Source: Eledone cirrhosa (taxonomy: Eukaryota). Taken from it: a stretch of 64,000 nucleotides of DNA. Position numbers and translations under genes: made by a program. Shown piece by piece: positions 5,478 through 56,191 of this stretch. Position 1 is the stretch's first letter; the number at the start of each line of letters is the position of its first letter. The DNA is taken from positions 16,740,001-16,804,000 of the forward strand of contig OZ024755.1 of NCBI GenBank assembly GCA_964016885.1. Reading direction: 5' to 3'. The notes below the pieces were generated by a model. The model did not search any database. It saw nothing but the letters and a program-made list of their open reading frames with translations, and was not told the DNA's origin.

Positions 5478-5860
5478 CTATAATCGAGCTAATACAGCAG
5501 CTCGTCTGTCAGTGTTTTGAAATAGAGCTTGAATTAACAGTTTCATTTCATTACATGAAAATTCGTGGGCTAAAACACCTTTGCCATCGGCCCACCGGTC
5601 AGAAATAGTTTGTAAGTTGGCATTTAGAACAAAAATGAGTTCCTTAAATTTCAACCAGGAGGGAATGTTCCTCTGTAACTCAACCTTGACATGCGCACTG
5701 TTAGTGGAATCAGCAGTATGTTTAGTAGAAAACAAAGGCCCAGTTTTCTCATCAAAAAGACAAAGTAGTTGGTGCAAGTGACTGGCTTCTTCTGCACTTA
5801 TGTCCACCAAATTTATGATGCTGTTTATCATTTCCTCCAAGACACAGTTTATAAGGGTAC
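5478..5860 (-). CDS. ZW10: ZW10 last coding exon
   Basis: ttatag acceptor, ends at TAG; conserved ZW10 C-terminus. Confidence 0.93.
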
Positions 5861-33600: not shown

Positions 33601-36600
33601 AACTCTGCCTTAGAATTACTGCAAATTAAAGCATCTACCTTGAATGTTTTGAATTCCCCCTGAGCACCAAACCCAGTGACTGGGTAGATCAAATTAAAAC
33701 AACCTAACTTTTACTTTTTTTAAATTCATTAGCTTTTGCATTTGTTTGCATATATTATAATTTTAAAAGTATCACCTATCTAACATCTCATTATTTTTAC
33801 TAATTTCCAGCTGGTAATCCTGAGGACAAAATACGTTTATTCATAATTTCTATGATATGTGGACCATCTATGACTGATGTAAGTATTAACACTTTCTTAT
33901 GTCTGCCTTCTCTAAAAATAAAACAAGTCTAAAGTCTGTCTTTAGCCCGGAGGCTCAACAGGCTGGTGTTTATCCCAGTTTCCGTGGGATTAAGCAACTG
34001 AAAATACAAGACTCCAGCCCCTTCCCCTAGACAGGATGCCAGTCTATCGCAGGGTTAACTCCCCAGCTATTATTGGTACTCATTTTCGTAAGTCCAACAC
34101 TAGACTGCTAGACTAAGTGCCTTCTTCACTTTGTAATTGAGCTCCTCTTTACACTGATAGATATAATCTATCACCCAGTTTATCACCACCGCCTTGGATG
34201 TTTTTAACAGAGTCTACTCTGTTGCAAGCATTTAGGCCAGGCCTTCAGTTTAGGATACATTCCTCCCACCTCATTTGTCTTGGAGACCCTGAAAAGGGCA
34301 AAAGAGTAAGGGACATTGATCTCTTCTCCTTGACCTAACAGAAAAAAAATGTGTGTGTGTATGTATAAATATGGAATATTTAATAGTATGTATCTAAATG
34401 TAGGCGGCAAATTGGCAGAGTCGTTAGAATATTGGGTAGAATGCTTTGGAGTACTTGATCCGGCTCTCTGCTCTCTCAGTTCATCCTTTTGAGGTCGATA
34501 AAATAATACCAGTCTAGTACTGGGGTCGATTCTTCCTCTATGTCTCTGTCTCACTCTCTATCCTTCTCTGGAAGAAATCTGTTGCATTCTGACTTGGGGA
34601 GATGGGCTCCACCAGGCTTAAACTACCCAAGAAACATATGCAACTACAGCAACTCTACGACTCCATCAGGAGCTACGGAATCATACACTACCATCTAAAC
34701 ATGCATGTGATTCTTTACCCTCTTACCAGTTTCAGCCATATGGCTCTATGTATTTAGAGAAATTTTCAGTTTGTATGTAGAAACATCGTTTTTAAATTAA
34801 CACTACAATTTCATTTTAACACATCACAACGTCTTCACTTTACTATGTCATGATGGAATATATTTTAAATTTTGAGGAAGATTTTTGAAATTATATATTT
34901 ATGTATATATTTTTATACTTTGTGTTTCAAAGGGTGAAAGAGTCAAGTTCAATTAGACAAAAAATATTTCAAAAACGTATAAAAAGGAGGAGTTGTTTCC
35001 CATGATGTTAAAGTTTATTATTTTATTTTTTGTTCAAGAAAAAGCAAAATGTAAACGTAAAGATTTGATACCAATAAAATGTAATATATATATATATATT
35101 ATATATATATATAATATATATAGATATATAAATGACTAGGTCACGAATTTGATAGCTCTTCCACTCTGCACCACCGTGTACAATCTGGGGAGATAGTCAT
35201 AATACGACCATGACATTTTAGGACATAAATAAATATAATAATGGTAATACCCATCAATTCACAGGTTAATATTATTAGAATTAAAGTTATTGGAAATGGT
35301 CAAATCAAAATTCAAAAATTCATATCAAGATGCCTAATATTTTGCACATGCAAAGGTTTGCAAGTATTGCTCAGAGGATGATGGGCATAGAATTAATGAT
35401 GAATGTTATGAAGAGAAATAGAATGAGATGGTTAGGTCATGTGTTGATAAAAGTCACTGGGTGAGAGGAGTGATGAAAATGAATGTGGAATGAAGTAGAT
35501 TTTAAGTGAGTTTGCAAAATATCTAACACAAAACTGCACAAAATAACACATTTTAATTCATTTAATTTCTTTTTTATTCTTTTTCTTTCATATTTATCCA
35601 TTCTTTGTAAACTCTATCTAGACTAATATAATTTCCATTTAATTGATAGCTTTTGATTCTCATTAGCATATTCAAGTTACATTGATCTAAATGGTTTCTC
35701 AGTTTGTTTTTGAGTTGATTCATGAGGCTAAAACCTCTCTCACAGTCTGCACTAGATGCAAGGAAAGTCCCACCTATGTCCATCAACTTCGCAAGGTCAC
35801 AAAACTGTTCATTGTGAAATGTAAATGCCACCATTTGAGCAAAGTTTAAAATTAATTTAGATTTAATCTTTTCTTGTACAGAAAATTTAAAATCATTAAA
35901 CTGTTTGACTATTGTAGTATTATTTTGAGCTAGAAAGCCATATTTTATACATAAAGCATGGATTTGATCTTCACCAAATGTGAAGTCACAGTCTATAAGT
36001 GCCGAGACATCAAATGCAGACCATTCTTGTACCTCATCTTCAGGAAATCTTTCTTCTAAATGTATACAAAGATGGTCTATAAACGTCAACAGTGAACTTA
36101 TATCTACCGTTGTATTATTTTCATCATGTTGTTGGCTGAACAAAATTCTAACTTTATCACTCCATGAAATATTGGTTCCCAAATACTGCTTTCTTATCTT
36201 GTTAATCTTGCCTCGAGCAAAATGGAGTGAATCAATTGTTGTGATGTCATTCTTTTGCAGAATCTTGGACAGTGCAGTCAGTTCTTCAAAGACATCGCTT
36301 AGAACATGCAAAGCTACTTTATATGTGATGTCTGTCAATGTCTCATGACAATATCTAGCCACAGGGTCATTTGACTTATTTTCTTCAAAATATGTGATGA
36401 GAGCTTCATAACTATTTATTATTGCCTGCAATGCGAAATGTCTAGATAACCACCTGATTTCATTAACTGGTCTGTAAGCAACAGCTTCGTTTTCAGAAAC
36501 CGTTGTGATTTCTTTAAATTTACAATTATTGCTTGAAGATCGTGAAAACACGGTATAGATTGTTCTTATGAGAATTTCAACGTCTCTTATTAACTGGACT

Positions 36601-39600
36601 TCTTTCCCTACATCACTAATTCCCAAGTCTTCATGGTGAGTTACACAATGTTGTTGAACTAAGTGAGGCATGGCTTGTTTAAGTCTTGCCACAACACCAT
36701 CACTACCTAACATTACTGATGCCCCATCTGATGTAAACATCACCATTTTATAGAGGTCGAGTTTCTTCTCATCATAAAATTGTTTGATCGCTGACACAAT
36801 AGAAGCAGCATCACATGCCCGAAGCTGGACTATTCCGCCGAAACACGTCTTATACGCTGTACACTCTTTAGGTCTGAATTTGAAATACAAAACGAGACAT
36901 TTGTTGATAGGTATGTCTGTAGTTTCATCAACTGTTAACGTGTGAAAATCTGCAGATGCTATTTCTTCAAATATGTCTTTCTGTACAATATAATCGATCG
37001 TCTGCAAAATTTCGAACGCATATTTTTTGCTTTGCCAGTTTTCAGGGAGTAGAACATACTTCGCCATATGTTCGTTTATATGTCGAACTGAATCTAAAGA
37101 ATCATCCATTTTAATAGCTAATAACACATTGTCGATGAAAACCTTCACTCCCTCCGGGTTCCATTGTTTTCTCTTTCGTTCATCATCTTCGATTTTAGGT
37201 AGCAAGGGTGCCCCGCCTGTAAAGAGCAATGACTGATCCTGCTGTCTTAACTTTTGTACACCGTTCAAATGTGATTTGCTTGTCAAATGCCGCTTCAAAA
37301 AGTCTAGTTTCCAAATACCATCCCATTTCTTTCCATTAGCAAATACTCCTGTGACTCCTGCATCTCGACAATACAAACACATGACTCCAGTTTCCGAATC
37401 ATACATGAATATTTCTCGTAGCTGAACATTCATAACCTCGTGAGCTTTCGGTGTAGCTGTTTCTACTATTTTGTTTAGCCATTCATATTTAAAGAAGCTT
37501 GCGGTTCTTCGACGCTTTACATCTCTCCCTTCTTTTATATACGACATTGTGAATCAAAAATAAAAAAAAAACGACCCTAAAATTTCAGCCATCTACAGGA
37601 TTTGAAACGGATCCTCGTAAACTTCACAATGTAAACATTGTCCATCGAACATAGATGACTGCAGCCTTGTTGCTGCTGAATTAACCGGAACAGGGTGGGG
37701 AGAGGGTGTAAATGTAAATTAGTATTGTGCAAATGTAATATTTGATAGTTAAAACGTACAGGTAGTTAAACGATAATTTTCAATGAGTATAATAATCATT
37801 AATTACTACGTTATTTTAAAACAACTGAACTTCTATGCACACACGAATTTCTTTGAGCGCTACTTGCAAACCATGTGCGCGCGCACACTTTCACAACTTA
37901 GAGGGAGGGGGCAATGCTTGTTTTATTCATAGTAAGAAAAAAGGGGAGGTAACTCAGAGTAAAAATTTCTTAATAAAATTTTATAGGTTTATTTTTTTAA
38001 CTTTACGCCTGCGTTATTTTGTTGATGTATTTATTATGTATTAATTGTAACAATTTCACCGACAAAGGCTTATAATAACCCTTTAAAAAAAAATATGTAT
38101 AGGCCGTTATATTTTTCGCGTTACTATTTTATAAAGTGTCAAAGTTTCATTGTAGTAGCATGGATATGGATAATATTTTATTTTACTGAAGCCTCTATTG
38201 AATATCAGGTGGGTAATTGGTAGAAGAGTTAGAATTGGGAGCTTTTTTTGTGGCACCAACTGTACCATCTTATTAGGTGAACTGGATACTTTTTTTGTTG
38301 TGGTACCAGAACTACCACCTTACATGGTGAACTGAGTCTTTTTGTTATGGCACCAGTATGACCCTCTTACAGGATATCCTTATAAACTATGTCCACATAG
38401 ACCTATTTAGCTGTTTTAATTATAGCTTTACTCTTACTTATGATCATGAATCTTGGGTAATGATCGAAAGAATACGATTGTGAATACAAGCGGCTGAAAT
38501 AGGGTCTTTGGAGATACGTTACTTGATAGTGTGTCACTCAGAGTTTCCCTAAGTAGAACCACTACTTTTCCGAATTGAGAGATCACAGCTCCGATATTAT
38601 GGACATGTGGCTAGAATATGTCATTGAAGAATCACTGGACAGATTTTACAGGCAAAGCCAACTGGCAGGAGACCCAGGAGTAGATCTACCCCGAGCAAGA
38701 TGGTTGGATAACATCCATGATTTCAGCTGGTCTTACTGAGGGATCCAGCTATTTCCTCCCATGGCCTTCCCAGGAATAAATAGGAAATACCCAAGAAAAA
38801 GAATTATAGATTTGATACCAATTATCTTCATTAATCTGCAGTCTGAGTGTAATGTTGCCGTTACGAAAATTATGCAACCAAGACCTAGCAAGACATACCA
38901 TTAAAACAACGAAACAGTTAAAACGACATTCATGTACAATCTTGTATATAAATTCATGGTGTGAATGTTTATCATTTGTTGGAGTTTTTCAAATATTTTC
39001 AAATATTTTTCTCTTGACCGCAGCAGAATTTGAACTCATAACATGAAGAGTTGGAACAAATACTGCCAAATATTTAGTCCTAGGTTTTAATAAGTCTGCC
39101 AGTTTCAATTCTGACAGTGCAGTATTTATTTGCTTCTCCTTCATAGTCCACTTAACATTTACAATGGTACAGCATCGCACAGCATGGTACAAAACTGTCC
39201 ATTGTTTGATTGTGATAAACATTGTTGATAACTACAGCTTGTATTATGCATGTTTCATTCTCATCGCCAAACATCTCCAGCCACTAACAAATTAAGTGCA
39301 ACTGTTTTCATGCTGTTTTGTTTTCTGCTTAATTAATCATTTGCATAAGCATCAGTTTTGTTATTTCTGAAACTACTAAAGTTAGGAAGTACAAATTACT
39401 AAGTCCAGTGATTACTAAGAATAAAAGAAAAACCTAGAATTTTTTCTTTCTCTTCAAAATGTTACATTTTGCTTGTTTTATAAAATTATTTGTACATTAA
39501 GTATGCAGCTTAGCTCTCTATTCAATATGTTGTATGCTTTGCAAATTATGGACTATATGAATAACAAAATCAGTTATAAAAAAAACAAACTGCAAAATTG

Positions 39601-42600
39601 GTACTTAGTAATACAATCTCTTTCATTTATTGGCAACTATATTAACCAATATTGGAAAATATTGATTACGAAATCAAATATTGACTATATATGATGGGGA
39701 AAAAAAAATTCTTCTTTTTGTTTTAATTTGCTAATTGTTTTTTGTTAATACTTAGACAAATATTTCTACCAATTATATTACAGAGTTGAAAATGAGACAC
39801 TCATGGCTGTAGCCATGCTGGTTCTCTTTCTTATTTTTTTCATTTTTTAAATTCTCTTCTTTGTTTCTTTGGTCTTATGTTGGAATCATTGGTTCTGGAA
39901 AGTTTTCATTATAGCTAGGCAGAATCGGTAGAGCGTTGGACAACATGCTTTGTAGCATATAGTTACAGCCCTTTATATTCTGCGTTCAAACCCTGCCGAG
40001 GTTAACTTTGCCTTTCATCCTTACATCCTTATGGGGTTGATAAAATAAAATACCAGTAATGCACCGGGGTCAATTTAATCAACTCTCTCCCACCAAAATT
40101 GTTGGACTTGTGCCTTAATCAGAAACTATTATTGTATTTACATTTGAGCGTTGGAATTGCAGAATCATTAGAGCATAAGACAAAATGTTACCCAACATTT
40201 GTTTCACCTCCTTACATTCTGAGTTCAAATCTTGCTGAGGTCAACTTTGGCTTTCATCCTTCCGGGGTTGATAAAATAAAGTACCAGTCAAATACTGGAG
40301 TACCTAAAATCAATTTCCTCCTCCTTTTCTTCTTTACCCACATATTCCTGGGAGGGTTGTGGAGGCAGAGTCCTCAAACACACCTTATAGTTATTTCCAA
40401 GTGAAACCAGCTGAGCTCATGGATGTTATCTAACCATCTTATTTATGGTCTACCTCTTGGTCCTCAACTGACTGGCTTTGCCCGTCAAGGCAATTATTGA
40501 AACTTTTAAATGACTTGAAGTATGTTGATGTATTTTTAGCCCATCTGGGCATTTCACACATATCTGGGATGGTATTTACCAATACATTATCATTGGCAGA
40601 GAGGACAGTGTATCAAATGTGTTTACTGAAATCTTAAACCTTGGCTTAAAGTTATTTTGGTATTTATAACATAGCTAAGCATTACCCTCTCTCTCTCACA
40701 CATGTATATACATACACGTGCACATATAAACATACGGGAGAGTGCAGTCTTCTATGCTACTCTCATACATACACACACATGAACTGAACGCATTAAATAG
40801 TTAGTTATCTAATTGATATACAAACTTCATTGGCCATTACACTATAATCCTTAGTTCATTGACATATTGTGCCCAACGTTTCTGTGACCTCGTGAACATG
40901 ATATAAAGATATACTGGCATATCATCATCATCGTTTAATGTCCATTTTCCACACTAGCAAGGCTTAGACAAGTTGTCCCATTGTCAGACAAGTCAGATCA
41001 GGTGACCATGTCCTGCTCATACAGAACTGCTTCTGTCTTGGTTTCTACAGCTGGATGCCCTTCCTAATGGCAACCACATTTACAGTGTGGACTGGGTGCT
41101 TTTTGTCATAGCACCAACAGGACCACTTTAAAGAGTGGACTGGATGCTATTTGTTTTTTTACCAACATGACCACCTTAAAACGACCAGCTAACAGGTTTG
41201 ATTGGGTACTTTTTTATCATGTGGGAAGGGTGTTTTTTGTCATGTAACCAACATGATCACTTTATAAGGTTCTATATCTATGTTGATAATGTTTCATATA
41301 ATTTGTCATTGTAACAGGCAAATATCCTGTATTAGACAAGACCATCTAAAATATTGTGTAGAGAGAATATGGTGTTTCCCAAAGGCATTTATTGAAATTT
41401 TTAAATGTTGTCTCCCAAAACACTTGCAGTATTAGTTAGATGTGTTTCCTACAGTCTTGTTCCAGTCTGTGTCATCTGGCACACACAGTTGTCATCTGGC
41501 ACACACAGTTGTCATCTGGCACACACATTACATACATTAACATAGATAAAAACCAGCCGATGACGTTGTTGTTTATGTATTATAGTGTACTGTATACTGC
41601 AGTTTAATGTCAACAGAACTACAGAGGTTGTCTGCAACTAGGTTAAAGAGTACCCTCTACTTTGTATCAGCTTTTGCCCTCCTAGTGGGGTTGTCTGTGT
41701 TGTAGCATATGGAGTCTATATCTTCCCTGTTTGGGGCCGAGTTTTATGGCTTGATGCCCTATTCTAGGGATGGTGGTGGTGGTAGTGGGGGCTATGATTG
41801 CAATGTCTTTGTATCTGTACAGTTGCTCTGAGGCAGATGGCTTAGTGGTTAGGGTATCCGGCTCAAGATCCTGAAGTCATCAGTTTGAGTCCTTGAGCTG
41901 TGCCATCCTGAATTTCTCAGAATGTTGTGTAAAGGATACACAAGTCTGTGGAATGCTCTGCCACTTGTACATTAATTTCATGAGCAAGCTGATCCATTGA
42001 TCCAACCATATTTCTAATGAAAGACACTGCTTATAATTTTCAAATTATCTTCAAAACAATTAAGAATTTGGAGTGATTTAGTAATATAACTTTATATACT
42101 TGAATATAAGCTGAGGGATATGTGACAAAAATAATCGATGGTAGAGGGGGGGGGGGGGGTCAAGGGTCAACATATTTTTGGGGTCAATATTTTGACAATT
42201 TTTAAATTATTTTGACATATTTCAAATTATATTGACAAACTTCAAATTATACATAAATAAGGTTTGGATTTTTGCTCATTTCTCAAACTTTGGAAGGTCG
42301 GGACTTATATTTAAGTATATATGATAATTTTCTCATTATGATGGAAGTTTTTTTTTTTTTAGATAAATATAAACACTTTAAAAGAAACAGAGTAGAAACA
42401 GGGCCAGGGGTTTCTAGCTGTTTGGTATCAAAAAGGTTAAAAAAAAATACTTAATCATATCTCTCACTCAGCAAAATGCTTTCATGCTTTTATTCTCTTA
42501 AAAAAAAAAATTAAACACATGGACAACATTTTTTTTTTCTATTTTCTCTTCCTTTCTTCACTCAATTATATATTGAAATGATAAATGGAAATGAGATACC

Positions 42601-45600
42601 CTTGTCATTCCCCTCTGTTAAGGGTGTTGGGGGAATTCCCTTATTAATAATACAATCTGTAGTATCTACTGCCTCTGTTGGAAGCTACTTGTATTTACTT
42701 TTATTTTCTTATGTATCTTAATGTTCTGTATTTTCCCATCTTAATGCAAGCTGGTATTATCACATTCACAGTGTGTGTGTTTGTGTTTATGTATGAATGT
42801 TTATATGTGTTTCTGTGTGAGTGTGTTTATGTATATGTTTGTGTGTTTATATGTGGCTGTTGTATGAGTTTATATATGCTTGTGTATGTATGTTTACATG
42901 TGTGTTTGTATGTGCATTTGTGTGTGTGTTTATGTTTATTTGTGTGTGTTTATATGTGTGTGTTTGTATTTATGCGTTTGTGTTTATATGTAAGTGTATA
43001 ACTGTGAGTATGTGTTTATATGTGTGCGTCTGTGTAGTTTACAACAGTTGTCACACTAGAACAAGTTTAAGTGTGTGTATATGTTTATATATGAATGTCT
43101 GTGTTTATATGTACATGTGTGTAGTTTACAACAGTTGTCACACTAGAACAAGTTTATGTGAGTGTGTTTGTAGTTTACATCAGTTATATACTAAGAAGTT
43201 TATGAAAATTTCCAGATCTTTGAGCTCAATTTGATAAGGTCCTTATAACTCTGTGTAGTATCTTGATCTTTTTAACTTCTTTTTTCAAATGAAGTCATTA
43301 TTTCCTATTAATCCCAGTGGGAGAAAGAGATATATAGGGACTGAGTGATAAACAAGGAGAGAGAGAAGGTGGGGGAGAAAGTTAAAGAGAAAAAGATGTG
43401 TGTATGTGTACAAAAAGAAAGAGAGAAGTTATAATGTGTTTGTGCATGTGTTTTCAAAAAGAGACATTGACGGAGAGAGATATTTATGTATTAATGTTCT
43501 GTAATTTAACCCAGAGAATCTGTTTAACCCTATTAAAGCTGATATTTAACAATAAAGATATTTCTGGAAATCAGATCTAAGTATTTATCATATTTGTCTT
43601 TTATTGTTTAAGAAGTATGAAACATGATACATACATCTGATGGAGATTATATCTGATATTTATGTTGTTTCCTTATGAATTTAACAGGAAATAATGAAGA
43701 TAAGATTTTTATCGACAGCTGGGCCCCCTGTGCAGTGTTGAGAAAATGTTAACCCTCTTGTTACCATATGTTTAATGAAAAATACTATTTGAATTAATTT
43801 ATAAAGAATTTAGCGGGATTTACTAAATGTGTTAAATATTTTGTTATTAAGATACTAGAGGGTGGTGGAAAGGCAGTATTGGTAGAGTGTCAAACAAAAT
43901 GCTTCATGGCATGGAATTATGGCCTTTTACGTTCTGAATTCAAATCCCACTGAGAGACTGCCATTAGGGTGGATGAGAGGGTTAACTATTCCAATCATGA
44001 TAATCATCTATGGAGAGATATAATGATCCCTCATTATTGAACCCACCTGAAACCCTGAAACCAACCCTGGTTCAATAATTGTTTCTACTTTAGGCACAAG
44101 GCCAGCAATTACCCAGTGCATTACCGATAAAATAAAGTACCAGTAATGCACTGGGTAATTGCTGGCCTTGTGTCTAAAGTAGAAACAATTATTGAACCAG
44201 GGTTGGTTTCAGGTGGGTTAGTATTAAAAAGGTTAATGTTCATTAACCTTCTTACTTCTCTTCTATTTCACCACTCATGCTAAATTCTGCATTGTATGTT
44301 TATGAATCATACTTGACTCATTTCTCTCCATTTTCTAAACATCTTCTGTACTCGGTGACCGAGTCTCTCTATCACGCCACATCACACTTTTTACATTTGT
44401 CCTTTATTGTTTGCCTTTTGAAAAAAAGAACCCCTTTGTTGTTGTTATTTAGCTCATGATCAAGCATGACTTTCTAGCTGTGACCACTGTCTTTTTATAT
44501 GCCTAGTGCTACACTGTCCAGTGTGTCCCTCACTTTTTAACCCTTTTATGACCACATTTCGAATGAAATACACATTATTAGTTAATGAAGAATTTTGAGG
44601 GATTTACTAAAATTATTATTTATTTCATTACTTAGAAAATAAAGAAACCATTACTAAGATAGTAACTTAATGTAAAGTTCATATATAAAATTATGTTAGA
44701 AAATTTAAATTTAAATTGGAAACCTTTAAAATGGATGGTTTTATTTCATAGAATCAAAGCTGGTTTTGGCTGGGTTGGTTGGTAACTAAAGAGTTAAGAT
44801 GATACGTTATAATTTGAAGGAAATCTGATTACTATTTCTTGCAGGTTAAGTGACCTCATAGTGGCTTTCTCATTATTCATAACAAAGTTAACAACTCTTT
44901 GAACCATTTTAATTTCTTGTATGCTTACCTTATCAAGTTGGATGCCATTGAGATCTCTGGTGCCCTTGGTCCCCAAACTGCCATTTTTTTTTACTCCAGC
45001 AGGAATGCATCCTGCCAGAGGAAGGAGACCTGTGAGGTGGAGGGGCTGATGCAATGAGTGTTGCTGGCTGATATCCACGGTAATGATTTTACCATTTTGC
45101 CTGTGGAACAGCTGAAAGATACCACTTAGATTGGGGTGTGGAGCCTACTGCTTACCACTACCATTTCCCTTACTTTTGCTATTTAATTTATTTCTCTTTT
45201 TGTTTTTTTTTATTGCAAACATCACATGATACAATTAAAAATTGTTGAATAAATAATTTTTCATGTAAAGGAAAAAAAAACCCTATAAACTTTACCAACT
45301 ATACTCTACACCACAACTACCTGTAAGTCGAATTTGGAGACCTAGGCAACGTGAAACTACATTACTACATTTAAAGAAAGACACCTGAGCTGTGTTCTTA
45401 TTGATGTCACACCTCAAGTATTGGTTCTCTGTCAATCGTGGCTGTTGTTTGTAATGTTGTAATGTGTACACAGTATCATGTTGCTATCTACACCCTTCTT
45501 ACATATTGAACAAGGCTGTTACTTCATAGATTACACTGATATATATATATATATATATATATATTACCAGATTGGGTTTTCTTTTACTGAAAGGAACCTC

Positions 45601-48600
45601 TCTTTCTTCTTCTCTACCTGGTAACCTCCTCACTATAGCTCTCTTGCAAGACTTTTTCATTTGTTCACTAATGCATAATAAACAAATAAAGCACCTACAC
45701 GTCATCATCATCGTTTTTACGTTGATTTTTTTTTTTCCATTCTGGCATGGGCTGGATGGGATTTTTTAGGCAATGTATTGCAGTTGGATGCCATCAACCT
45801 CTTATGATACACAGGGATATAATGTACCTATTCTAACCTGGATACACACAGTTACACAGATGTCAGGATACACAGTTAACCATTTGGTTGTTTTTATTAT
45901 CAAATGGTGTCTCTACATTAATGTCAAGCACAAGTGATTGTGGGTTGATAAAGAGAGTTTGCCTTAACGGCAAGCAAAGGCTGGCTCCTACCATCACAAG
46001 GCCCTACTGAAAGTCTGGTGGGACTGGAAAGGTGTCATCCACTACAAGCTGCTCCCACCAAACACCAGCATAACCTTTGACATCTATTGCCAACAACTTG
46101 CACCACTTCCCTTTCATTACATTACATTACACCACATTACACCACACCACATTACACCACACCACATTACATCACACTACATTACATTACACCACACCAC
46201 ATTACATCACACCACATTACATCACACTACATTACACCACACCACATTACACCACACCACATTACATCACACCACATTACATCACACCACACTACATCAC
46301 ACCACATTACACCACACCACATTACATCACACCACATTACATCACACTTCATTACACCACACCACATTACACCACACCACATTACATCACACTACATTAC
46401 ATCACACCACATTACATCACACCACATTACACCACACCACATTACATCACACTACATTACATTACATCACACCACATTACACCACACCACATTACATCAC
46501 ACTTCATTACACCACACCACATTACACCACACCACATTACATCACACCACATTACATCACACCACATTACACCACACCACATTACACCACACCACATTAC
46601 ATCACACTACATTACATTACATCACACCACATTACATCACACTACATTACATTACACCACACCACATTACATCACACCACATTACATTACACCACACCAC
46701 ATTACACCACACTACATTACACCACACCACATTACACCACATTACACCACACCACATTACACCACATTACATCACACCACATTACACCACATTACATTAC
46801 ATCACATTACTACCATCTTTCCAACTTCTACATTAACTCTTCAACTATACCAAGGTAATAATCTATCAAACTATTACTCTGATCCTCAGGGACTCCCTCC
46901 TCCCCCTACTAGTTATGGAGGGAGGTAATACTGTGTATCAATGAAACTCTCTTTGTCTGCCTCTCTCTCTCTCTCACTCCCTCTCTCTCTCACTCACTCT
47001 CACTCTCACTCACTCTCACTCTCACTCTATCTCTCTCTCTCACTCTATCTCTCTCTCTCACTCTCACTCTATCTCTCTCTCTCACTCTATCTCTCTCTCT
47101 CACTCTCTTTCCTCTCACTCACCCTTTCCTCCCTCTTCATTCCTTCTCTCTTTCACTTACTCCCTCACTCTCTCTTCCCCCTCCTCTCCATCTCTTAGTT
47201 TCAACACTTTACTATAATGTCTCCCAACAAGACAGCTATCAAATTTATCCAAGAGGACAGACACCATTCTAGATCTGGCAAAATGATTAAGTCAGTGCAG
47301 TTAGGATTCTAACCTTTTTTTTACTTTAACTTCTGAAAACTGAAACCTAATCTTATATTATATTTTGTCTATCAGACATAGGTTAAAGCATTTTGCTACC
47401 ACCATCACCATTATCATCATCATTGCCATCATCATCATCATCATTGGCATCATCATCACCATCATTATTATTATGCAAAATCCACATACATACACACACT
47501 ATGGTTTTGTCCTGTGCCATCATAATGTTTTTTTTTATGTAAACACTTTGTGGTTAATAAAGAAATCATTATTATTATTGGCAGTATCGGTAGAGGTTCG
47601 GATGCCATGCCTTGCAACATAGAGTTACGGTCCTTTACGGTCTGAGTTCAAATCCCGCCGAGGTTAACTTTGTCTTTCATCCTTACGGGGGGTCGATAAA
47701 ATAAAGCACCAGTAATACACTGGGATAATTGCTGCCCTTGTGCCAAAAGTAGAAACAACAATTATTATTATTATTATTATTATTATTATTTCATATCAGA
47801 TGAAAATCCTGAGGTTTGCTTTGCCTTTCATCCTTACAGAGTCGATAAAATAAAGCACTAGTAATGCACTGGGGTCGATTTAATCAACTTCCCCCTCACC
47901 CCAAAATGCTGGCCTTGTGCCTATAGTAGAAATAATAATAATAATTATTATTATTTGTTTATTAGACTCCAGCCTCAGGTCTTTCATCTCTTGATATGAA
48001 ATATTTTGGAATTAATCTCCAGACAGTAATCCAACTATTATCTATTAATAGGAAATATGGAACTGACAGAGCATAGAACTTAATATTGGTATTTCATGTT
48101 AAAACAAATATACAAGCAAGTTCTTTATTTATTGTAGTAGAATGTCTAAGGAGACAAACACATAACCCACATTAAATTACATTAAATTACATCTCTGAAA
48201 CACCACATATGTCTTGGCTGGCTGGCTGGTTGGCTTATGGGGTTAATATTCTTCAAACTATTGCATGTTGATGCTGGAGGTCAGAGTAACCTGTTAGTAG
48301 AATATGGTACTGCCAGACATACCAAGTGGTTGTGGTTGGGGTTACTCCACTCTTAATCAGATCTAAGACAAGCAATTAATAGCAATTTTTATGTTATGTT
48401 ATGCTATACTGACACTGTTTAGTTTAAACTACTTTAAGATTTTTTTTTTCTTTTAAAGTTTTAAGTCGAAAGTAAATACTAAGATGTGTATGCTCTCTCA
48501 GTGGCTGTGGCTACAGAATTATGTCACTATCTTTCAGTTAGACCCAAGTGCATCACTGTGTATGCTCTCTCAGTGGCTGTGGCTACAGAATTATGTCACT

Positions 48601-51587
48601 ATCTTTCAGTTAGACCCAAGTGCATCACTGTGTTTGCTCCCCCAGTGGCTGTGGCTACAGAATTATGTCACTATCTTTCAGTTAGACCCAAGTGCATCAC
48701 TGTGTTTGCTCCCCCAGTGGCTGTGGCTACAGAATTATGTCACTATCTTTCAGTTAGACCAAAGTGCATCACTGTGTTTGCTCCCCCAGTGGCTGTGGCT
48801 ACAGAATTATGTCACTATCTTTCAGTTAGACCCAAGTGCATCACTGTGTTTGCTCTCTCAGTGGCTGTGGCTACAGAATTATGTCACTATCTTTCAGTTA
48901 GACCCAAGTGCATCACTGTGTTTGCTCCCCCAGTGGCTGTGGCTACAGAATTATGTCACTATCTTTCAGTTAGACCCAAGTGCATCACTGTGTTTGCTCT
49001 CTCAGTGGCTGTGGCTACAGGATTATGTCACTATCTTTCAGTTAGACCCAAGTGCATCACTGTGTTTGCTCTCTCAGTGGCTGTGGCTACAGAATTATGT
49101 CACTATCTTTCAGTTAGACCCAAGTGCATCACTGTGTTTGCTCTCTCAGTGGCTGTGGCTACAGAATTATGTCACTATCTTTCAGTTAGACCCAAGTACA
49201 TCACTGTGTTTGCTCCCCCAGTGGCTGTGGCTACAGGATTATGTCACTATCTTTCAGTTAGACCCAAGAGTATCACTGTGTATCCTTCCTCAGTCGCTGT
49301 GGCTACAGGATTATGTCACTATCTTTCAGTTAGACCAAAGAGTATCACTGTGTATCCTCCCTCAGTCGCTGTGGCTACAGTTATGTACTATCAGTTAGCG
49401 CTAAGTATACTGTACCTTTCTATGAGTCTCTTGTTTTCTATTTCTATGTATTTATCTGTAAAGTGGTTCGTTTTAAGAAGGGTATCAAGATGCGGCTCTC
49501 TGATCAGTCTAGTCACGAGCCATAACATGTCCAACCCATGCCAACATGGAAAACATCTGATAAACGATGGTGTTGCTTGTGGTGGAGGTGGTGTTGTTGC
49601 AGCAGGAGTAGCAGTAGAAGCAGTAGTAGTAGTACAAGCTAGGACCTGTCCATTGTTTGCTGTAATTAGTTCAGTTAGATATGACATTATTTATAAGAAA
49701 TATATGTAAATCCAGAGAATTCCAAATACTTTATTGTTGTTAGGTCTCTCATATTTCAAATGTATTCTTCTTTGTCTGTTTGACTGCCTGTCTCACTGAG
49801 TCTCTCTCTTACTGTGTTTGACTGTCTGTGTCTGCCTGTCTCACTGAGTCTCTCTCTTACTGTGTTTGACTGTCTGTGTCTGCCTGTCTCACTGAGTCTC
49901 TCTCTTACTGTGTTTGACTGTCTGTGTCTGCCTGTCTCACTGAGTCTCTCTCTCACTGTGTTTGACTGTCTGTGTCTGCCTGTCTCACTGAGTCTCTCTC
50001 TTACTGTGTTTGACTGTCTGTGTCTGCCTGTCTCACTGAGTCTCTCTCTTACTGTGTTTGACTGTCTGTGTCTGCCTGTCTCACTGAGTCTCTCTCACTG
50101 TGTTTGACTGTCTGTCTGCCTGTCTCACTGAGTCTCTCTCTTACTGTATTTGACTGTCTGTGTCTGCCTGTCTCACTGAGTCTCTCTCTTACTGTATTTG
50201 ACTGTCTGTGTCTGCCTGTCTCACTGAGTCTCTCTCTTACTGTATTTGACTGTCTGTGTCTGCCTGTCTCACTGAGTCTCTCTCTCACTGTGTTTGACTG
50301 TCTGTGGCTGCCTGTCTCACTGAGTCTCTCTCTTACTGTATTTGACTGTCTGTGTCTGCCTGTCTCACTGAGTCTCTCTCTTACTGTATTTGACTGTCTG
50401 TGTCTGCCTGTCTCACTGAGTCTCTCTCTCACTGTGTTTGACTGTCTGTGGCTGCCTGTCTCACTGAGTCTCTCTCTTACTGTGTTTGACTGTCTGTGTC
50501 TGCCTGTCTCACTGAGTCTCTCTCTTACTGTGTTTGACTGTCTGTGTCTGCCTGTCTCACTGAGTCTCTCTCTCACTGTGTTTGACTGTCTGTGTCTGCC
50601 TGTCTCACTGAGTCTCTCTCTTACTGTGTTTGACTGTCTGTGTCTGCCTGTCATTCTCATTGACTGTTCAACTGACTGACTGTCTTCTTAGAACTATTGT
50701 ATGATTACCAAACTTATGACTATCTTAGGACTATTTCATGATTATCAATCTTATGACAATCATTCTTCTGACTACCTTCTTATGACTGTTACTATTATCA
50801 TTATATTACGACTATCAGTCTCATGACCATTGCTATTTTGGTGAGCAATCTTATGATTACCAATTGCAAAATTAATCTTCAAAATATCTTCAATTCATGT
50901 TTATTTATCACTTGTAAATAAAAATGTCTGAAAGAGAGAGACAGAAAGAGAGACAAAGAAAAGAGGGACAGATAGATAGAAAAAGAAAGAGAGTGAGACT
51001 AGTAGAAAGTATGAATTATAGACTAAAACAGTTGAAGCAAGCTGGTTTCCATTACAACACATGGAGTCTGTAGTATTTAGCTACCATGATATATTTTATA
51101 ATAAAAACTAGTAAGGTAAAAATAGAATCCTTAAGGGACAGTTAATTAAAGGGTTGAGAGATATTAATAGCAAATACTGTTAAAATCAAGAGTGGTAGTT
51201 TAGTTAAGGGGCTGAACTACTGATTATATGCATACATTGTTTGGAATTCAAATCTTGTTATAACCATTAGGCTACATCCCAAACAAAACACATTAATCTG
51301 TCTTGCTTCAGTCCTTCAGTCAACCAAACTAAAAACATTATTTACTTTAGTTTTTTTTATAGCTATGTAGTTTAATCCTGGAGCATAATGGTTTCTGATT
51401 AAGGCACAATGCTAACTATTTTATCGACCCTGTCAGGACAACCCGTCTAACCCATGCTAGCATGGAAACATTGACGTAAAACGGTGATGATGATGATGAT
51501 GATATATATATATATATATATATATAATGGAAAAATTTGAACAGGAACAAAACAGAGAGGCAGTACAACGAATGTTTATTAATTTCA

Positions 51588-51639
<52 letters not shown>

Positions 51640-54600
51640 AACAAATAAAAACACTGGAGAACAATACAATACAATGATGATAGTTTTATATATTGTAGAG
51701 TTTATTTATTTTCAATTTAAAAAAATAAACTGTATTTCATGAATGCTTGTCAAAGTGTCTTTTACAACATTGTGTCTGTATGTGCATGTGTGTTTATCCA
51801 TGTGTTTGTGTGTTTGTGTTTGTATATGTGTGTTTATGTATGTATGTATATGTGTGTTTGTGTATGCATTTGTGAATGTACATGAGTGTTTGTGGATGTG
51901 TGTTTGTGTATGTCTATATTTGGTTGTGTATGTGTGTTTCTGTATATACCTATGTGTTTGTGTATGTGCATATGTGTGTGTGTGTGTATGTCTGGTAATG
52001 TCTATTTGTATATCTATAATTCAAATTCTAACCAGAAAAAAGAGCAAAGCTAAAATCTAAAAGTGTTTTTATTCTTTTTTTCTTAAAGCAAGGCAAAAAG
52101 AACAGATCTTTTATATAACACCATTGTGTATGAATATTATATAGTATATACATGTGTTTTAATTGGTTAAGCAGTTTATAAAGAAGTGGATTGTGCCTGA
52201 AAATAGCTACAAAATTGAAGAAAACTCTGTCTGACTAATGTTTCTAAATTGGTGATTACAATTGTTTCTGTGAAAAGGTTTCCTGCTGGATATATTAATC
52301 TTGCCTTTTACATTACTTCTGTGCCAAGCACCATGCTGTCTGAATGTATTTGTGTGTGTAATATATGTATATATAGGTATTTGTGTGTGTGTGTATATGT
52401 TTGTTTGTGTTGTGTATATATATATGAGTGTGTGTGTGTGTTGTGCATATATATATGTATGTGTGTTGTGTATGTTTGTGTTATGTGTATTTATATGTGT
52501 ATATTTGTGTGTGTGTCTGTGTTTTTTGATGGTGTTGTTTCTATTGTATTGAAAGTACTCATAATATGTCAATATTGGTCAATATGTTTTGTGGCATATA
52601 GTTACAGCCCTTTACATTCTGAGTTCATATCCTGTTGAGGTTAGCTTTGCTTTTCGTTTTTACAGGATTGATAAAATAAAGAACCAGTAATACACTGGAG
52701 TTGATTTAAACTACTTTCTCCTCCTCTCAAATTGTTGGCCTTGTGACTAATTTAGAAACCATTATTGTTTGTTTTGTTTTTTGCAATTATTACAAAATTA
52801 TATTTCATACATAGTTAAGTCTTTTGATTATTGTTGTTCAATCATTGGTGGCATAAGTTATTTTTGGGTTGTTGTTGTTTAGATTTGGCAAGTGACTTCA
52901 TCTGAGACCATTTAATGTTGAAACTAAAAGAATAACCGAATGGAAGAGTAGTTTTAGCCATTTAAAAGACACATAAAAAATTATTATCTTTACTTATATT
53001 TGTCATTTATTTGTTGGTGTGAAAATTTTTGTCACACTGTCTGTCACCTGGTCACTGACACAGTTGTATGGTCACAGTCTGTGGCCTAGTCACACTGTCT
53101 ATGGCCCAGTCACTGTCACAATTCTATTGTCACACTGTCTGTGACTTGGTCACTGTCAGAATTCTATTGTGACACTGTCTGTGACCTGGTCACTGACACA
53201 GTTGTATGGTCACACTGTCTGTGGCCTAGTCACACTGTCTATGGCCCAGTCACTGTCACAGTTCTATTGTCACACTGTCTGTGACTTGGTCACTGTCAGA
53301 ATTCTATTGTGACACTGTCTGTGACCTGGTCACTGACACAGTTGTATGGTCACACTGTCTGTGGCCTAGTCACACTGTCTATGGCCCAGTCACTATCAGA
53401 ATTCTATTGTCACACTGTCTGTGATCTGGTCACTGACACAGGTTTATTGTTACACTGTCTGTGAACAGGTCACTATCACAGTTCTATTGCCACATTGTCT
53501 GTGACCTGGTCACTGACACAGTTCTATTGTCACACTGTCTGTGACCTGGTCACTGACACAGTTCCAATGCCACACTGTTAGTGACCTGGTCACTGTCAGT
53601 TTCAGTGTCACACAGTCTGTAACCTGGTCACTGACAGTTCCACTGCAACTCTGTGTCCCTCACCAGTCACAGACAGTGTGTCGAAAAATCTGAACACCAA
53701 GAGAAATTTGACTGCTCTTTCTAATAGATTCAGTAACTATGTAGAGGCTCCTACATTGCTTTAACTATTTATTCATTTATACTACAACTGTGTGTAAGTC
53801 TGTCTGTTTGTCTCTCATTCTTTCTCTCTGGTATTTTGATTATATTCTTGTGAAGGTTTTCATTAAAAAATATGTTTATTTGTACCACTAAGGCAAAAGC
53901 TAGCTCTCTCTCTCTCTCCCTCTCTCTTCCTATCCCTTTCTCACCTTCCATCACACGCATATAGTCTTTCTTTCCCTCTCTTTCTTATACACATTACCTC
54001 CTGCCTCACCCTCTCTTCTTCTCTCATCTCTCTCTCTCCCTCTCTCTAGCTCTCTCTCTTTATCTCTCTTTTCCTCTAGCTCCTTTTCTTTTCTCCTATC
54101 TCTCTCACTCTCTCTCTCTCCCTCCCTCCCTATAATCCCTTCTCTTTATCTCTTGCTTTCCCTCTATGTCTGTATACCCCCTCCCCCACTCTCTCTTTAT
54201 TGTATTTCAGTCTGTTTCAACTATATCTACTCATTTACCTCTATACTCTGACATAGCATCCTGTCTCTGTTTGACTTTGTAACCAGAGTTTTCCAAACAC
54301 TGTTTGCTTTCTTGCACAGAAAATCTTGGCCAGTTTCCCATTCACCAACTTCTAATTGTTGATTTTACTTCACTCCACTTCAATAATATGGATGCTAGTG
54401 CCACAAACGTATTCCATGAGATGTTACTAAGTAATTACTGTTGTAATTACAGTTAGTCTCACTTTTGACTGAGTTTTGCCAACAGGAGACCATTTGGCAG
54501 CCATATTTACCATTTCTTGACATACATACAGCTCTACGAACTAACATTCTTTTATTTGTTGCTCTTTAGAAACATCTACCTTTAACCCTTTTGTTACCAT

Positions 54601-56191
54601 ACTTCTAACTGCCTGTGTTTTCAGATAATTATTTTTAATTTATATTATAAAATTATTTTTAATTTATATTATAAAATTATTTTTAATTTATATTATAAAA
54701 GGCCTGTTTCTCTGTCTGTCTGTATCTGTCACACATATATCTAGGAGTGAAAAGGGGTGGCAATCCTTTTTTTTTATGTTGAGCGGAGAAGGGAGATACC
54801 TTATGGTCATGCTTATAGTTTTATTACAAAGGTTAGAAGTAAGAAGGTAGAGATCTCTAGGAGAGGGTGGTGGTGAGGGGGTCCCTAGTAATCAATCATT
54901 TGGAATGATTTAGTTACATAACTAACTTACTTATTGTTAAGTTGGTGTTTAAGGTGGTGGATTAGCAGAGTTATTTAAAATTAGATAAAATATCTGAGGA
55001 TGTTTCTTCTGGTTCTTTACGTTCTAAAGTTCAAATCCTACTTAGGTCAACTTTGCCTTTCATATTTTCCTATATGTATTTTAAATGATATTTCCCTATA
55101 TCTATCTTAAATATTTCCCTATATCTATCTTAAATGATATTTCTCTATACCTATCTTAAATAATATTTCTCTATACCCATCTTAAATGATATTTTCCTAT
55201 ATCTATCTTAAATGATATTTAAAAATTATTTTATCTTTTTCTTTTATGTTTCAGGCCGAATTGGACCAATATTGTATGGCTTTTAAAGCCAGCAACCTTG
55301 ATATTACCCCGATTCAGTATATCCGTAGATGGAAGTAAGTATTACACTTTAAAATCTTATTGTCATATCTTATCCTAAATAGATTTACCCTAAAAGTAGA
55401 TGGCTTAATGACTTAATTTACTTTAATTTACATTCAGGTTTTTGGTTTGTTAATCATATAATTTTTGACCTTATTGGCAAACAACAATATAAGACAATTC
55501 CTCTGATTTGGGGTTCAGAGTTAGGGTTAGGGTTAGTGAAGATCTGCTTAATTAGTTTGTGTTGATCTTTTAGCATCTTCACTTGAAGGTAGAGAGGTTT
55601 CTAAGAGAAATTTAATAAGGGTGAACATGACTGCTTTTGGGTCCTGTGGAAGTGGAATGGAGGATACCAGACATTCATAACTGGTTTTATTCCCATCATC
55701 CTCTGCAATTCATTATTTGCCTTCCTCTTTCTCACAGTGATATATTCTACTCATCTAGCATTGATGAAAGAGTGAATATCTTGTAGAGGTTATGTAACAG
55801 TACTTGCCTTAACACGAGACGCTTCTGTTACGTAACAGTACTTGCCTTAACACAAGACACTTCTGTTACGTAACTGGAAGGACCTAGGATAACCAGAATT
55901 TTTGCCCAGACTGAACTTCCAGAAACTACCACAAACGATCCTTTTTCAAAAGTTGTTCTCCCTACAACAGTCTCTTTTGTCATCAAATTACCGACATCTA
56001 TCACACAGAATCTAGCCAGCTCATATATACTTCTGTTCTCACCACAGCCATAAATGGGTTGAAAACCCTTCCGGTGAAACATGTGTCCTCGAATATGGCT
56101 TTCTAATTTGTTATGGAACTACTCAATACTGAACTCGTTCTTTGGACTGAGTGCTCTACTAACTTCAGATATAAACTTCTGGTTTTTACCA

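Follow-up and report, generated by a model that had tools for sequence, protein, structure and literature searches.

A 657-aa open reading frame (ORF) of the hAT transposase type lies within an intron of SCFD1 in the octopod Eledone cirrhosa, raising the question whether a transposon has been retained there as a host gene and, if so, whether as a DNA-binding protein or as an enzyme that still cuts DNA. The window, i.e. the whole 64-kb stretch of contig OZ024755.1 that was analysed, provides the coordinates used below. A literature search, with subscription journals mostly outside its reach, brought up no publication that treats this gene or a hAT transfer between octopus and ray.

Position of the ORF and its host gene

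As an earlier sequence-only reading had claimed, the hAT-type ORF is nested antisense in SCFD1, which is located on the plus strand; the ORF lies between coding exons 16 and 17. It runs stop-free from ATG to TAA, and no other non-repeat ORF in the window comes close to it in length.

33811..33878, plus strand: SCFD1 coding exon 16
33879..55254, plus strand: SCFD1 intron 16, GT..AG, 21.4 kb, host of the nested gene
55255..55335, plus strand: SCFD1 coding exon 17
35574..37547, minus strand: apparently domesticated hAT transposase ORF, intronless, 657 aa, ZNF862/KIAA1586-like, DUF4371 type (ORF, domain, fold and profile matches)

The AATAAA copies pointed out near the stop codon are present (35573-35578, 35022-35027 and 35014-35019). 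As gene evidence they were rejected and carry little weight, because 107 hexamers of this type (1.7 per kb) occur on the minus strand of the window.

Domains and predicted fold

The zinc finger, VDETTD, SDGA, CxxH, RW and CERGFS named in the earlier reading were all located by residue mapping, the finger being of a non-BED type.

37269..37379, minus strand: N-terminal C2H2-type zinc finger (C57, C60, H87, H93) with a basic KRRRT stretch before it; kept in 4 of 4 aligned octopod proteins and in the family
36726..36929, minus strand: Asp207 (in VDETTD) and Asp274 (in SDGA), both catalytic, in the RNase H-like core; no octopod copy and none of the 44 homologues from outside the octopods deviates
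36633..36647, minus strand: CxxH motif C301-H304, kept; the following family Arg305 (R in 41 of the 44 others) is His in all octopod copies
36450..36455, minus strand: RW motif R365, W366; W kept in 44 of 44 non-octopod homologues and in the Eledone copy
35691..35741, minus strand: catalytic Glu603 (CERGFS; Hermes E572) and His619 replacing the Arg matched to Hermes R588; gap-free profile alignment to 8EDG

The KRRRT stretch is likely a nuclear localisation signal. The Pfam BED finger, by which membership of the ZBED family was assessed, gave no match in the ORF at E ≤ 1. Two characters of the hAT superfamily are present: two Asp and a distant Glu with a helical insertion domain between them were found in both sequence and model, and CxxH (C301/H304) and RW (R365/W366) in the Eledone copy. 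D207, D274, E603, CxxH and the finger are kept in all four aligned octopod proteins; W366 is replaced by L, L and F in the three Octopus-clade proteins. The RW of the ORF pairs with that of Hermes in a weak stretch of the profile alignment. The C-terminal hAT dimerisation region (PF05699) gave a match at E 0.038 that falls short of the curated cut-off; the family profile matched Hermes over the C-terminal region with the catalytic Glu at E 3e-6. A single-sequence search of the PDB with the ORF protein yielded no useful match. The predicted model has a complete Hermes-like fold, with Hermes structures (8EDG, 4D1Q, 8SJD, 6DWW, 2BW3) as its 10 best fold matches (E 9e-10 to 3e-8, probability 1.00).

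Remnants and ends of the transposon

An autonomous hAT transposon has, by definition, terminal inverted repeats (TIRs) of 10-25 bp (PMC3942097). Neither TIRs, nor an 8-bp TSD, nor near-identical dispersed copies or MITEs were found at the locus and in the genome searches.

37548..37882, minus strand: 5′ non-coding transposon remnant, whose homology with three dead copies reaches 37826-37882; the contig of run X5 keeps it up to 37887
35227..35573, minus strand: 3′ non-coding transposon remnant, interrupted by a dispersed repeat at 35372-35499
35132..35222, no strand assigned: unrelated dispersed repeat where the transposon 3′ end is expected (39 other matches among 40 scored; alignment)

The absence of a TIR pair and an 8-bp TSD from the flanks, already remarked on from the sequence, was confirmed at the mapped ends with a general repeat finder and a targeted scan. 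Inverted 12-mers with ≤2 mismatches between 37800-38600 and 34500-35350 numbered 95, none of those listed being located at the mapped ends, and only 1 of the 95 pairs had a 2-mismatch flank in the 8-bp TSD scan, its 3′ arm lying inside the unrelated repeat. The 5′ remnant, which gave a single match in the DNA search of the genome, has no recognisable TIR, and repeats interrupt the 3′ end. The repeat at 35132-35222 was considered as a MITE end and rejected as an unrelated insertion on the basis of its copy matches and the alignment. No family TIR emerged from the alignment of dead-copy ends.

Copy number, decay of sibling copies and selection

In protein and DNA searches the ORF was the only intact member of its hAT family found in the genome, and the many near-identical dispersed copies which the earlier reading had associated with a recent insertion were not encountered. 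The next-best of the 62 and 66 protein-level matches showed 38-52% identity and 8-21 stops (67 candidates were scored per protein search, so that copy counts are lower bounds); the best other DNA matches to the ORF reached 67-75%, the DNA searches likewise giving floors. A second, multi-copy hAT family with long open frames is 23-33% identical to the Eledone gene.

In each of four sibling copies, 10-18 stops and 8-25 frameshifting indels occur over 800-1434 aligned bases, and the divergence of these copies is even over codon positions (p 0.73-1). The divergence of the Eledone copy at codon positions 1, 2 and 3 is 0.119, 0.090 and 0.188 (p=0.0016), the third evolving twice as fast. Since its third-position distance is similar to that of the dead copies, the intact copy is as old as these siblings. 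At their decay rate about 25 stops and about 26 frameshifts are expected in the length of the ORF; none is present, which bears out the intact frame first noticed in the sequence.

In a related species (run X5) the frame is kept: a single contig covers the ORF and shows 134 differences, together with two deletions of 3 bases each and a -1/+1 pair 4 bases apart. The 40 listed changes of 128, from the 3′ third of the ORF alone, comprise 19 synonymous and 21 non-synonymous ones and give a dN/dS of 0.24-0.41 (p 0.00004-0.007); pS (about 0.10) equals the intron divergence (0.088). Neutral evolution, another sign by which a recent insertion was to be recognised, is replaced by a signal of purifying selection in the third-position excess and in the dN/dS of the related species. 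The ORF has been under purifying selection after its insertion, of moderate strength (dN/dS about 0.4).

Octopod relatives and probable horizontal transfer

Intact relatives in Octopus bimaculoides and O. sinensis are 73-74% identical to the Eledone protein, compared with about 85% for ZW10 and 98% for SCFD1. The O. bimaculoides protein XP_014787446, named 'zinc finger protein 862' in RefSeq, is located on the same 147,805,816-base sequence as SCFD1 (XP_014787455) and ZW10 (XP_014787469/477); the accession steps of 9, 14 and 8 are similar to the step from one ZW10 isoform to the other. Judging by accession order and sequence length, its gene would adjoin SCFD1 and ZW10. The octopod proteins form one clade (support 100/99), and a grouping of the Eledone copy with protein P0001 and Narcine was rejected (p-AU 0.002). 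States shared by octopods, such as E68V, I219V, S248A and T325I, are ancestral in the dead siblings. Of the octopod end branches, that of Eledone is the longest (0.22). Taken together, the accession order and sequence length in O. bimaculoides, the clade, the shared changes and the presence in the related species at intron-level divergence make the same locus likely in several species. Absence from the orthologous intron, named beforehand as evidence of a recent insertion, is countered by these intact relatives, that of O. bimaculoides being annotated beside SCFD1. No orthologue from Argonauta, O. vulgaris, squid or Nautilus was found among the 93 matches or the listed cluster members. In the annotations of Argonauta and O. 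vulgaris, where the nested gene may have been missed or may be absent, SCFD1 is directly adjacent to ZW10.

The electric-ray proteins of Narcine bancroftii (XP_069794896-898) and protein P0001 are 72-77% identical to the Eledone protein and 78-83% to the Octopus copies. The hAT family likely entered octopods by horizontal transfer, because the identity of the ray protein (72-79%) exceeds that of SCFD1 between octopus and vertebrates (67-68%). P0001, in which all family motifs are kept, falls on the node where the ray and octopod copies meet (branch 0-0.004), and the dead siblings have it as their best match. When P0001 was used to scan metagenomes for an intact element that includes its ends, 79 pattern matches resulted, 0 of which were confirmed. 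In its gene model the Narcine copy is fused to the N-terminus of a MUTYH-type glycosylase.

CpG retention and possible transcription

36400..37890, no strand assigned: CpG-retaining zone over the 5′ half of the gene, observed/expected 0.99, compared with 0.29 in the corresponding parts of dead copies, 0.18 elsewhere in intron 16 and 0.21 in the 3′ half

This composition, which resembles a CpG island and was lost by the dead copies, suggests a promoter, and the 5′ remnant at 37548..37882 is likely the promoter and 5′ UTR of the gene. In run X4 the depth was 61.8 at SCFD1 exon 10 (28910, 28989) and 0 at the listed unique places in the neighbouring introns (28677-28754, 29013-29037, 29241 and 31267); over the ORF short low-depth contigs (37088-37315) and a depth of 2 at 36302 were obtained. 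The pattern is RNA-like, carries neither strand nor level and gives a weak hint of transcription. The RAD-seq run X6 barely covered the ORF.

Residues changed in octopods

Three family-conserved arginines are lost in all octopod copies (R172Q, R305H and R619H). R619 aligns with Hermes R588, which contacts the TIR and whose counterpart was included in an inactive quadruple mutant of Kat1 in the accessible text of PMC4763223. The changes may represent tolerated drift and not adaptation, since all three are transitions of the CpG type and R305H is also present in two dead copies. In total, 37 of 175 family-conserved columns are changed in at least one octopod copy, 19 of them in the Eledone lineage, so that the three kept catalytic residues are not by themselves a signal. 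The earlier reading had proposed a host-retained DNA-binding protein or recombinase, possibly still catalytic: its domestication part is supported, and its catalytic part is weakened by the lost arginines and, in Octopus, the lost tryptophan of the RW motif, which make a non-mobilising DNA-binding role appear likelier than catalysis.

Preferred explanation and alternatives

On balance, the locus probably holds a single intact hAT gene, under purifying selection since its insertion, which encodes a nuclear protein of the host that binds DNA, associates with itself as a ZBED6-like regulator and no longer mobilises DNA. Domestication is well supported by the comparisons, and the host function is what we infer from them. 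A hAT family close to P0001 would have been transferred horizontally into an octopod ancestor, leaving several copies there. The other copies found have all decayed, and the Eledone copy kept its frame. Transcription would start in the transposon's own 5′ region, as the CpG retention suggests, independently of the SCFD1 promoter because the gene is on the opposite strand. As its ends are no longer recognisable, mobilisation in cis is not possible. The zinc finger and the RNase H-like fold are kept, as seemingly is the dimerisation region at the C-terminus, and arginines at or near TIR-contacting sites changed in the ancestor of the octopod copies; the protein would bind genomic sites via the finger, oligomerise via the transposase scaffold and modulate transcription or chromatin.

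A domesticated yet catalytic protein, i.e. a host endonuclease or recombinase like yeast Kat1 that cuts cryptic end-like sites, is considered unlikely. The intact DDE, CxxH and RW of Eledone fit a nuclease equally well, the model has the complete Hermes-like fold, DDE, CxxH and the finger persist in all four octopod proteins, and the Trp loss in Octopus does not exclude cutting because Kat1 W576A still cleaves and switches mating type (PMC4763223). However, with about one fifth of the conserved columns changed, the three residues would be about as likely as not to be retained without selection for catalysis; moreover, R619H removes the Hermes R588 equivalent, R305H and R172Q hit near-invariant arginines, and neither target ends nor a MITE family were found in the genome searches. 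Extended to one horizontally travelling hAT tamed twice, as a catalytic octopod gene in SCFD1 that cuts or rearranges DNA and as the MUTYH fusion of the ray, the idea is distinctly improbable. A repressor of its own or related hAT families, acting as a dominant-negative subunit or end-binding blocker, is rather unlikely: the finger and dimerisation scaffold are kept, the DNA-contact and hairpin residues are lost and a second, multi-copy hAT family is present in the genome, but that family is only 23-33% identical, and selection continued in the recent comparison of Eledone with run X5 although all siblings found of its own family are long dead.

Little credence is given to a once-useful gene that is now drifting, or to a locus kept mainly for an antisense promoter or RNA effect on SCFD1 with the protein secondary. 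The dN/dS of about 0.4, the long Eledone end branch with its 19 changed columns and the CpG-rich 5′ half inside an essential gene would suit it; the third-position excess and in-frame-only indels are protein-level signals, present also in the recent comparison, and argue against it. A recent autonomous insertion that has not yet decayed is hardly credible. Even though the ORF is intronless and full-length with catalytic motifs, and relatives in other animals resemble ordinary multi-copy transposases (a newt cluster has 35 members), there are no close copies and no TIR or TSD, repeats have inserted in the 3′ end, the third-position age equals that of the dead siblings, the codon-position and tree results contradict it, and the gene is present in the related species at intron-level divergence and in Octopus.

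The preferred reading implies a new, datable octopod gene from a horizontally acquired transposon, with dead siblings as a neutral control in the same genome and P0001 as a near-ancestral relative against which the taming substitutions can be read and tested. The accessible part of a survey of transposon-derived factors in O. bimaculoides gives two truncated ZBED genes alone and not this gene (PMC10027918). If regulatory, the gene would be a candidate octopod-specific transcription factor; if catalytic, it would be one of the few hAT nucleases that have been domesticated.

Comparison with known systems

ZNF862-like proteins are assigned to the Tip (Tip100) group of hAT. By domains and automatic names the Eledone gene belongs to the same transposase subgroup as the ZNF862/KIAA1586/C17orf113-type genes (DUF4371, FAM200-ZBED5 RNase-like), of which ZNF862 is listed as hAT-derived in the accessible text of PMC3257199. 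It differs from them by the absence of a KRAB domain and of introns in the coding part, and it is not an orthologue of these vertebrate genes, having an octopod-only origin among transposase-like sequences. Hermes, 14-17% identical to the Eledone protein, is an active element with TIRs, whereas the Eledone gene has lost its ends and carries His at the position equivalent to R588. In Kluyveromyces lactis, Kat1 is likewise a domesticated hAT transposase with intact DDE and CxxH, but one with proven nuclease activity on retained TIRs (PMC4763223); the Eledone gene has no evident substrate.

According to the accessible text of PMC2780926, ZBED6 of placental mammals resembles the Eledone gene in being intronless, single-copy, hAT-derived and fixed in position in an intron of an unrelated gene, with a DNA-binding finger and dimerisation domain kept. 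It differs in its two BED fingers of near 100% conservation and in being co-transcribed on the host strand, the Eledone gene being antisense with likely its own promoter. The Eledone gene, for its part, has a non-BED C2H2 finger, a whole DDE core and a much faster evolution, and would act as a ZBED6-like regulator from outside the ZBED family.

Genomic position of the ORF

A 657-aa hAT-transposase-type ORF had been proposed from the sequence to lie antisense inside an SCFD1 intron. The frame was found and the intron was mapped around it, with a 100% match to Argonauta SCFD1 by the 47-residue exon near the ORF. The features were as follows:

35574-37547, minus strand: hAT-type ORF, 657 codons, ATG to TAA, stop-free frame
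18595-61870, plus strand: SCFD1, 18 coding exons (mapping of the Argonauta SCFD1 protein)
33879-55254, plus strand: GT..AG intron of SCFD1 between exons 16 and 17, holding the ORF (exon mapping)
5481-10988, minus strand: ZW10, head-to-head upstream of SCFD1
35372-35499: unrelated dispersed repeat in the 3′ end of the element (DNA search)
35132-35222: unrelated dispersed repeat in the 3′ end of the element (scored matches and alignment)

ZW10 and SCFD1 both act in ER-Golgi traffic. Identity of the ZW10 exons was about 85% with O. bimaculoides and about 77% with Argonauta, which would place the genome among octopods outside the O. bimaculoides/O. sinensis group. The adjacency of both genes was also present in the annotations of O. 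bimaculoides, O. vulgaris and Argonauta. The intron additionally contains 72-bp and 48-bp tandem arrays (48485-49392 and 49784-50652; 96-97% matches), from which spurious ORFs of 200-300 aa arise, and a near-perfect hairpin built of a common dispersed repeat (44054-44213; 76-nt arms 96% complementary, 8-nt loop).

Copy number and extent of the element

Protein searches, in which 67 candidates each were scored after a stricter first look and match counts are lower bounds, revealed one intact copy in the 3.0-Gb genome and no near-identical dispersed copies. The next six places were 35-52% identical to the query with 8-21 stops, and the remaining matches (23-39% identical) belonged mostly to another family. 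In the DNA search the ORF recurred elsewhere at 67-75% identity only, and its 5′ flank had no second place in the genome. The extent of the remnant element was mapped by its homology to four decayed siblings (L041-L044), which spans about 37882 to 35227; as in the sequence-only reading, a search of the ends found no TIR with TSD. The repeat at 35132-35222 belongs to a dispersed family of roughly 170 bp (further loci L047-L060), usually beside TA runs, with inverted partial copies close by in L047 and L052.

A second hAT-like multi-copy family occupies over 50 places in the same genome (23-33% identical to the query; for example C1:357644399, C26:7287115 and C3:221855666), many of them with open frames of 400-690 residues, and is likely a younger invasion.

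Selection on the ORF

Four of at least six siblings were analysed. Over aligned lengths of 1434, 1234, 800 and 937 bases they had 18, 16, 11 and 10 stops, together with 25, 13, 12 and 8 indels that shift the frame; had the intact ORF decayed equally fast, it would be expected to show about 25 stops and about 26 frameshifts. At sites on which two or more dead copies agree, the ORF differed at 30/253 first, 24/268 second and 49/261 third codon positions (p=0.0016), and each dead copy was flat in the same test (p 0.73-1). In three-taxon distances the ORF reached 0.17-0.27 at third positions, where it resembled the dead copies; at second positions its distance was 0.07-0.13.

In sequence data of a related species (run X5), a single contig covered the entire ORF; it differed in 134 letters and had two deletions of 3 bases and one -1/+1 pair four bases apart. 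Adjoining intron pieces showed 158 differences over 1798 bases, plus 87 gap letters. Scoring of 40 of 128 differences, from the 3′ third of the ORF, gave 19 synonymous and 21 non-synonymous changes and no stops; dN/dS was 0.24 without weighting and 0.40 once the observed transition bias was taken into account (p=0.005). In this third pS was about 0.10, matching intron divergence, which is what vertical descent predicts. We regard the proposed domestication as highly probable.

CpG observed/expected was 0.99 across 36400-37890. It fell to 0.29 in matching parts of the dead copies, to 0.21 in the 3′ half and to 0.18 elsewhere in the intron, and reached 1.1-1.5 at the SCFD1 and ZW10 starts. As CpG is generally lost by decay, this suggests a putative unmethylated germ-line promoter in the 5′ end of the element.

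Probable orthologues and horizontal origin

The cluster of the homologue P0002 includes XP_036358365 from O. sinensis and XP_014787446 from O. bimaculoides, both 73-74% identical to the Eledone protein. The O. bimaculoides transposase gene, SCFD1 (XP_014787455) and ZW10 (XP_014787469, 477) lie on one sequence of 147,805,816 bases, and their accessions are spaced by 9, 14 and 8, just as isoforms of a single gene are; from both observations we infer that the genes are annotation neighbours. For the orthologous intron, this result covers the annotated position beside SCFD1.

Trees were built from 11 and 32 rows, a subset of the homologue matches. The octopod proteins formed one clade (100/99 in the careful 11-row tree, 99 in the quick 32-row tree), and a grouping of the Eledone copy with P0001, an unnamed transposase-like protein, and the electric-ray homologue was rejected (p-AU 0.002). 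At 22 sites the four octopod proteins share a state that P0001 lacks; the codons of the dead copies there had the P0001 state in 16, the octopod state in 12 and another in 19 cases. The dead copies hold the ancestral state at E68V, I219V, S248A and T325I; R305H and R492H are poor clade markers, because they recur in dead copies as CpG decay.

The O. bimaculoides protein was 82.5% identical to P0001 and 78.6% to a homologue from the electric ray Narcine bancroftii, encoded on a 257-Mb sequence, while octopus SCFD1 was 67-68% identical to that of three vertebrates. Compared with O. bimaculoides, this genome has 8 differences in 506 residues of SCFD1, whereas the transposase differs at 26%. Since the transposase exceeds SCFD1 in octopus-vertebrate identity despite diverging faster among octopods, vertical mollusc-vertebrate descent cannot explain it; a horizontal transfer would. 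P0001 had a branch of almost zero length where the ray and octopod copies join, all four dead copies matched it best (54-62%), and it is a candidate active element. It comprises 659 aa on a 2551-base Logan contig, keeps all motifs and is near the ancestor of the ray and octopod copies.

Three Narcine RefSeq isoforms (XP_069794896-898; P0003, P0097, P0098) contain a nearly full-length transposase of this family, joined in frame to a glycosylase of the MUTYH type with HhH-GPD and NUDIX-like domains in Pfam. This is either a genuine gene fusion or an artefact of the annotation. More distant relatives are fused to KRAB (PF01352) in Pelodiscus (P0015) and Gekko (P0023), and sea-turtle models (P0085-P0087) combine family pieces with P450 or lipase domains.

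Protein identity and proposed role

The Pfam hits were DUF4371 (E 3e-5) and, weakly, the hAT dimerisation region (E 0.038), neither of which reached its curated cut-off; there was no BED finger. All 93 homologues found (7993 candidates scored) were either ZNF862/KIAA1586-like or of the same type without a name, in agreement with the feature search. The structure model (49-sequence alignment; pLDDT 81, pTM 0.70) had Hermes chains as its 10 best fold matches, and the family profile aligned gap-free to Hermes 536-606, with E603 at E572 and H619 at R588.

In 44 non-octopod homologues, 175 alignment columns reach a conservation of at least 90%. Of these, 19 were changed in the Eledone copy, 20-23 in Octopus-clade copies, 2 in P0001 and typically 1-15 (in one case 20) in other homologues. 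These counts indicate that the fold is still constrained and the transposase-specific constraint apparently loosened.

The sequence-only reading had considered the protein possibly still catalytic. The zinc finger, D207, D274, E603 and CxxH that it listed are indeed retained in every octopod copy, and would fit a host nuclease; however, about 21% of the conserved columns are altered somewhere within the clade, so retention of the triad is uninformative. Moreover, R172Q, R305H and R619H are common to all octopod copies, and R619H alters the match to Hermes R588, a TIR contact whose corresponding Kat1 quadruple mutant is inactive according to passages of PMC4763223. Of the RW motif, W366 is kept in Eledone, and the Octopus clade has L or F instead; the same passages describe a Kat1 tryptophan mutant that keeps cleavage and barely performs strand transfer. 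A host nuclease is consequently unlikely.

The column changes, the arginine and W366 losses and the uninformative triad together favour a putative DNA-binding oligomeric regulator, which is our preferred and fairly probable reading, over the alternatives. A transposon repressor appears slightly less plausible even than a nuclease. A drifting or RNA-level locus is more doubtful still, and a recent insertion, with no near-identical copy among the scored matches, is very improbable.

Comparison with known systems

Element definitions were taken from passages of PMC3942097. Two truncated Octopus ZBED genes are reported in PMC10027918, whose available text passages and supplementary files mention neither XP_014787446 nor XP_036358365, and no description of the gene was found in literature outside subscription journals and bioRxiv supplements. 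As far as this literature reaches, it is a real, undescribed octopod-specific domesticated hAT gene of a kind already known, and its probable horizontal origin and possibly parallel capture in the ray raise its interest. ZNF862 is a known hAT-derived gene (passages of PMC3257199), and the gene arrangement parallels that of ZBED6, as far as described in the passages of PMC2780926.
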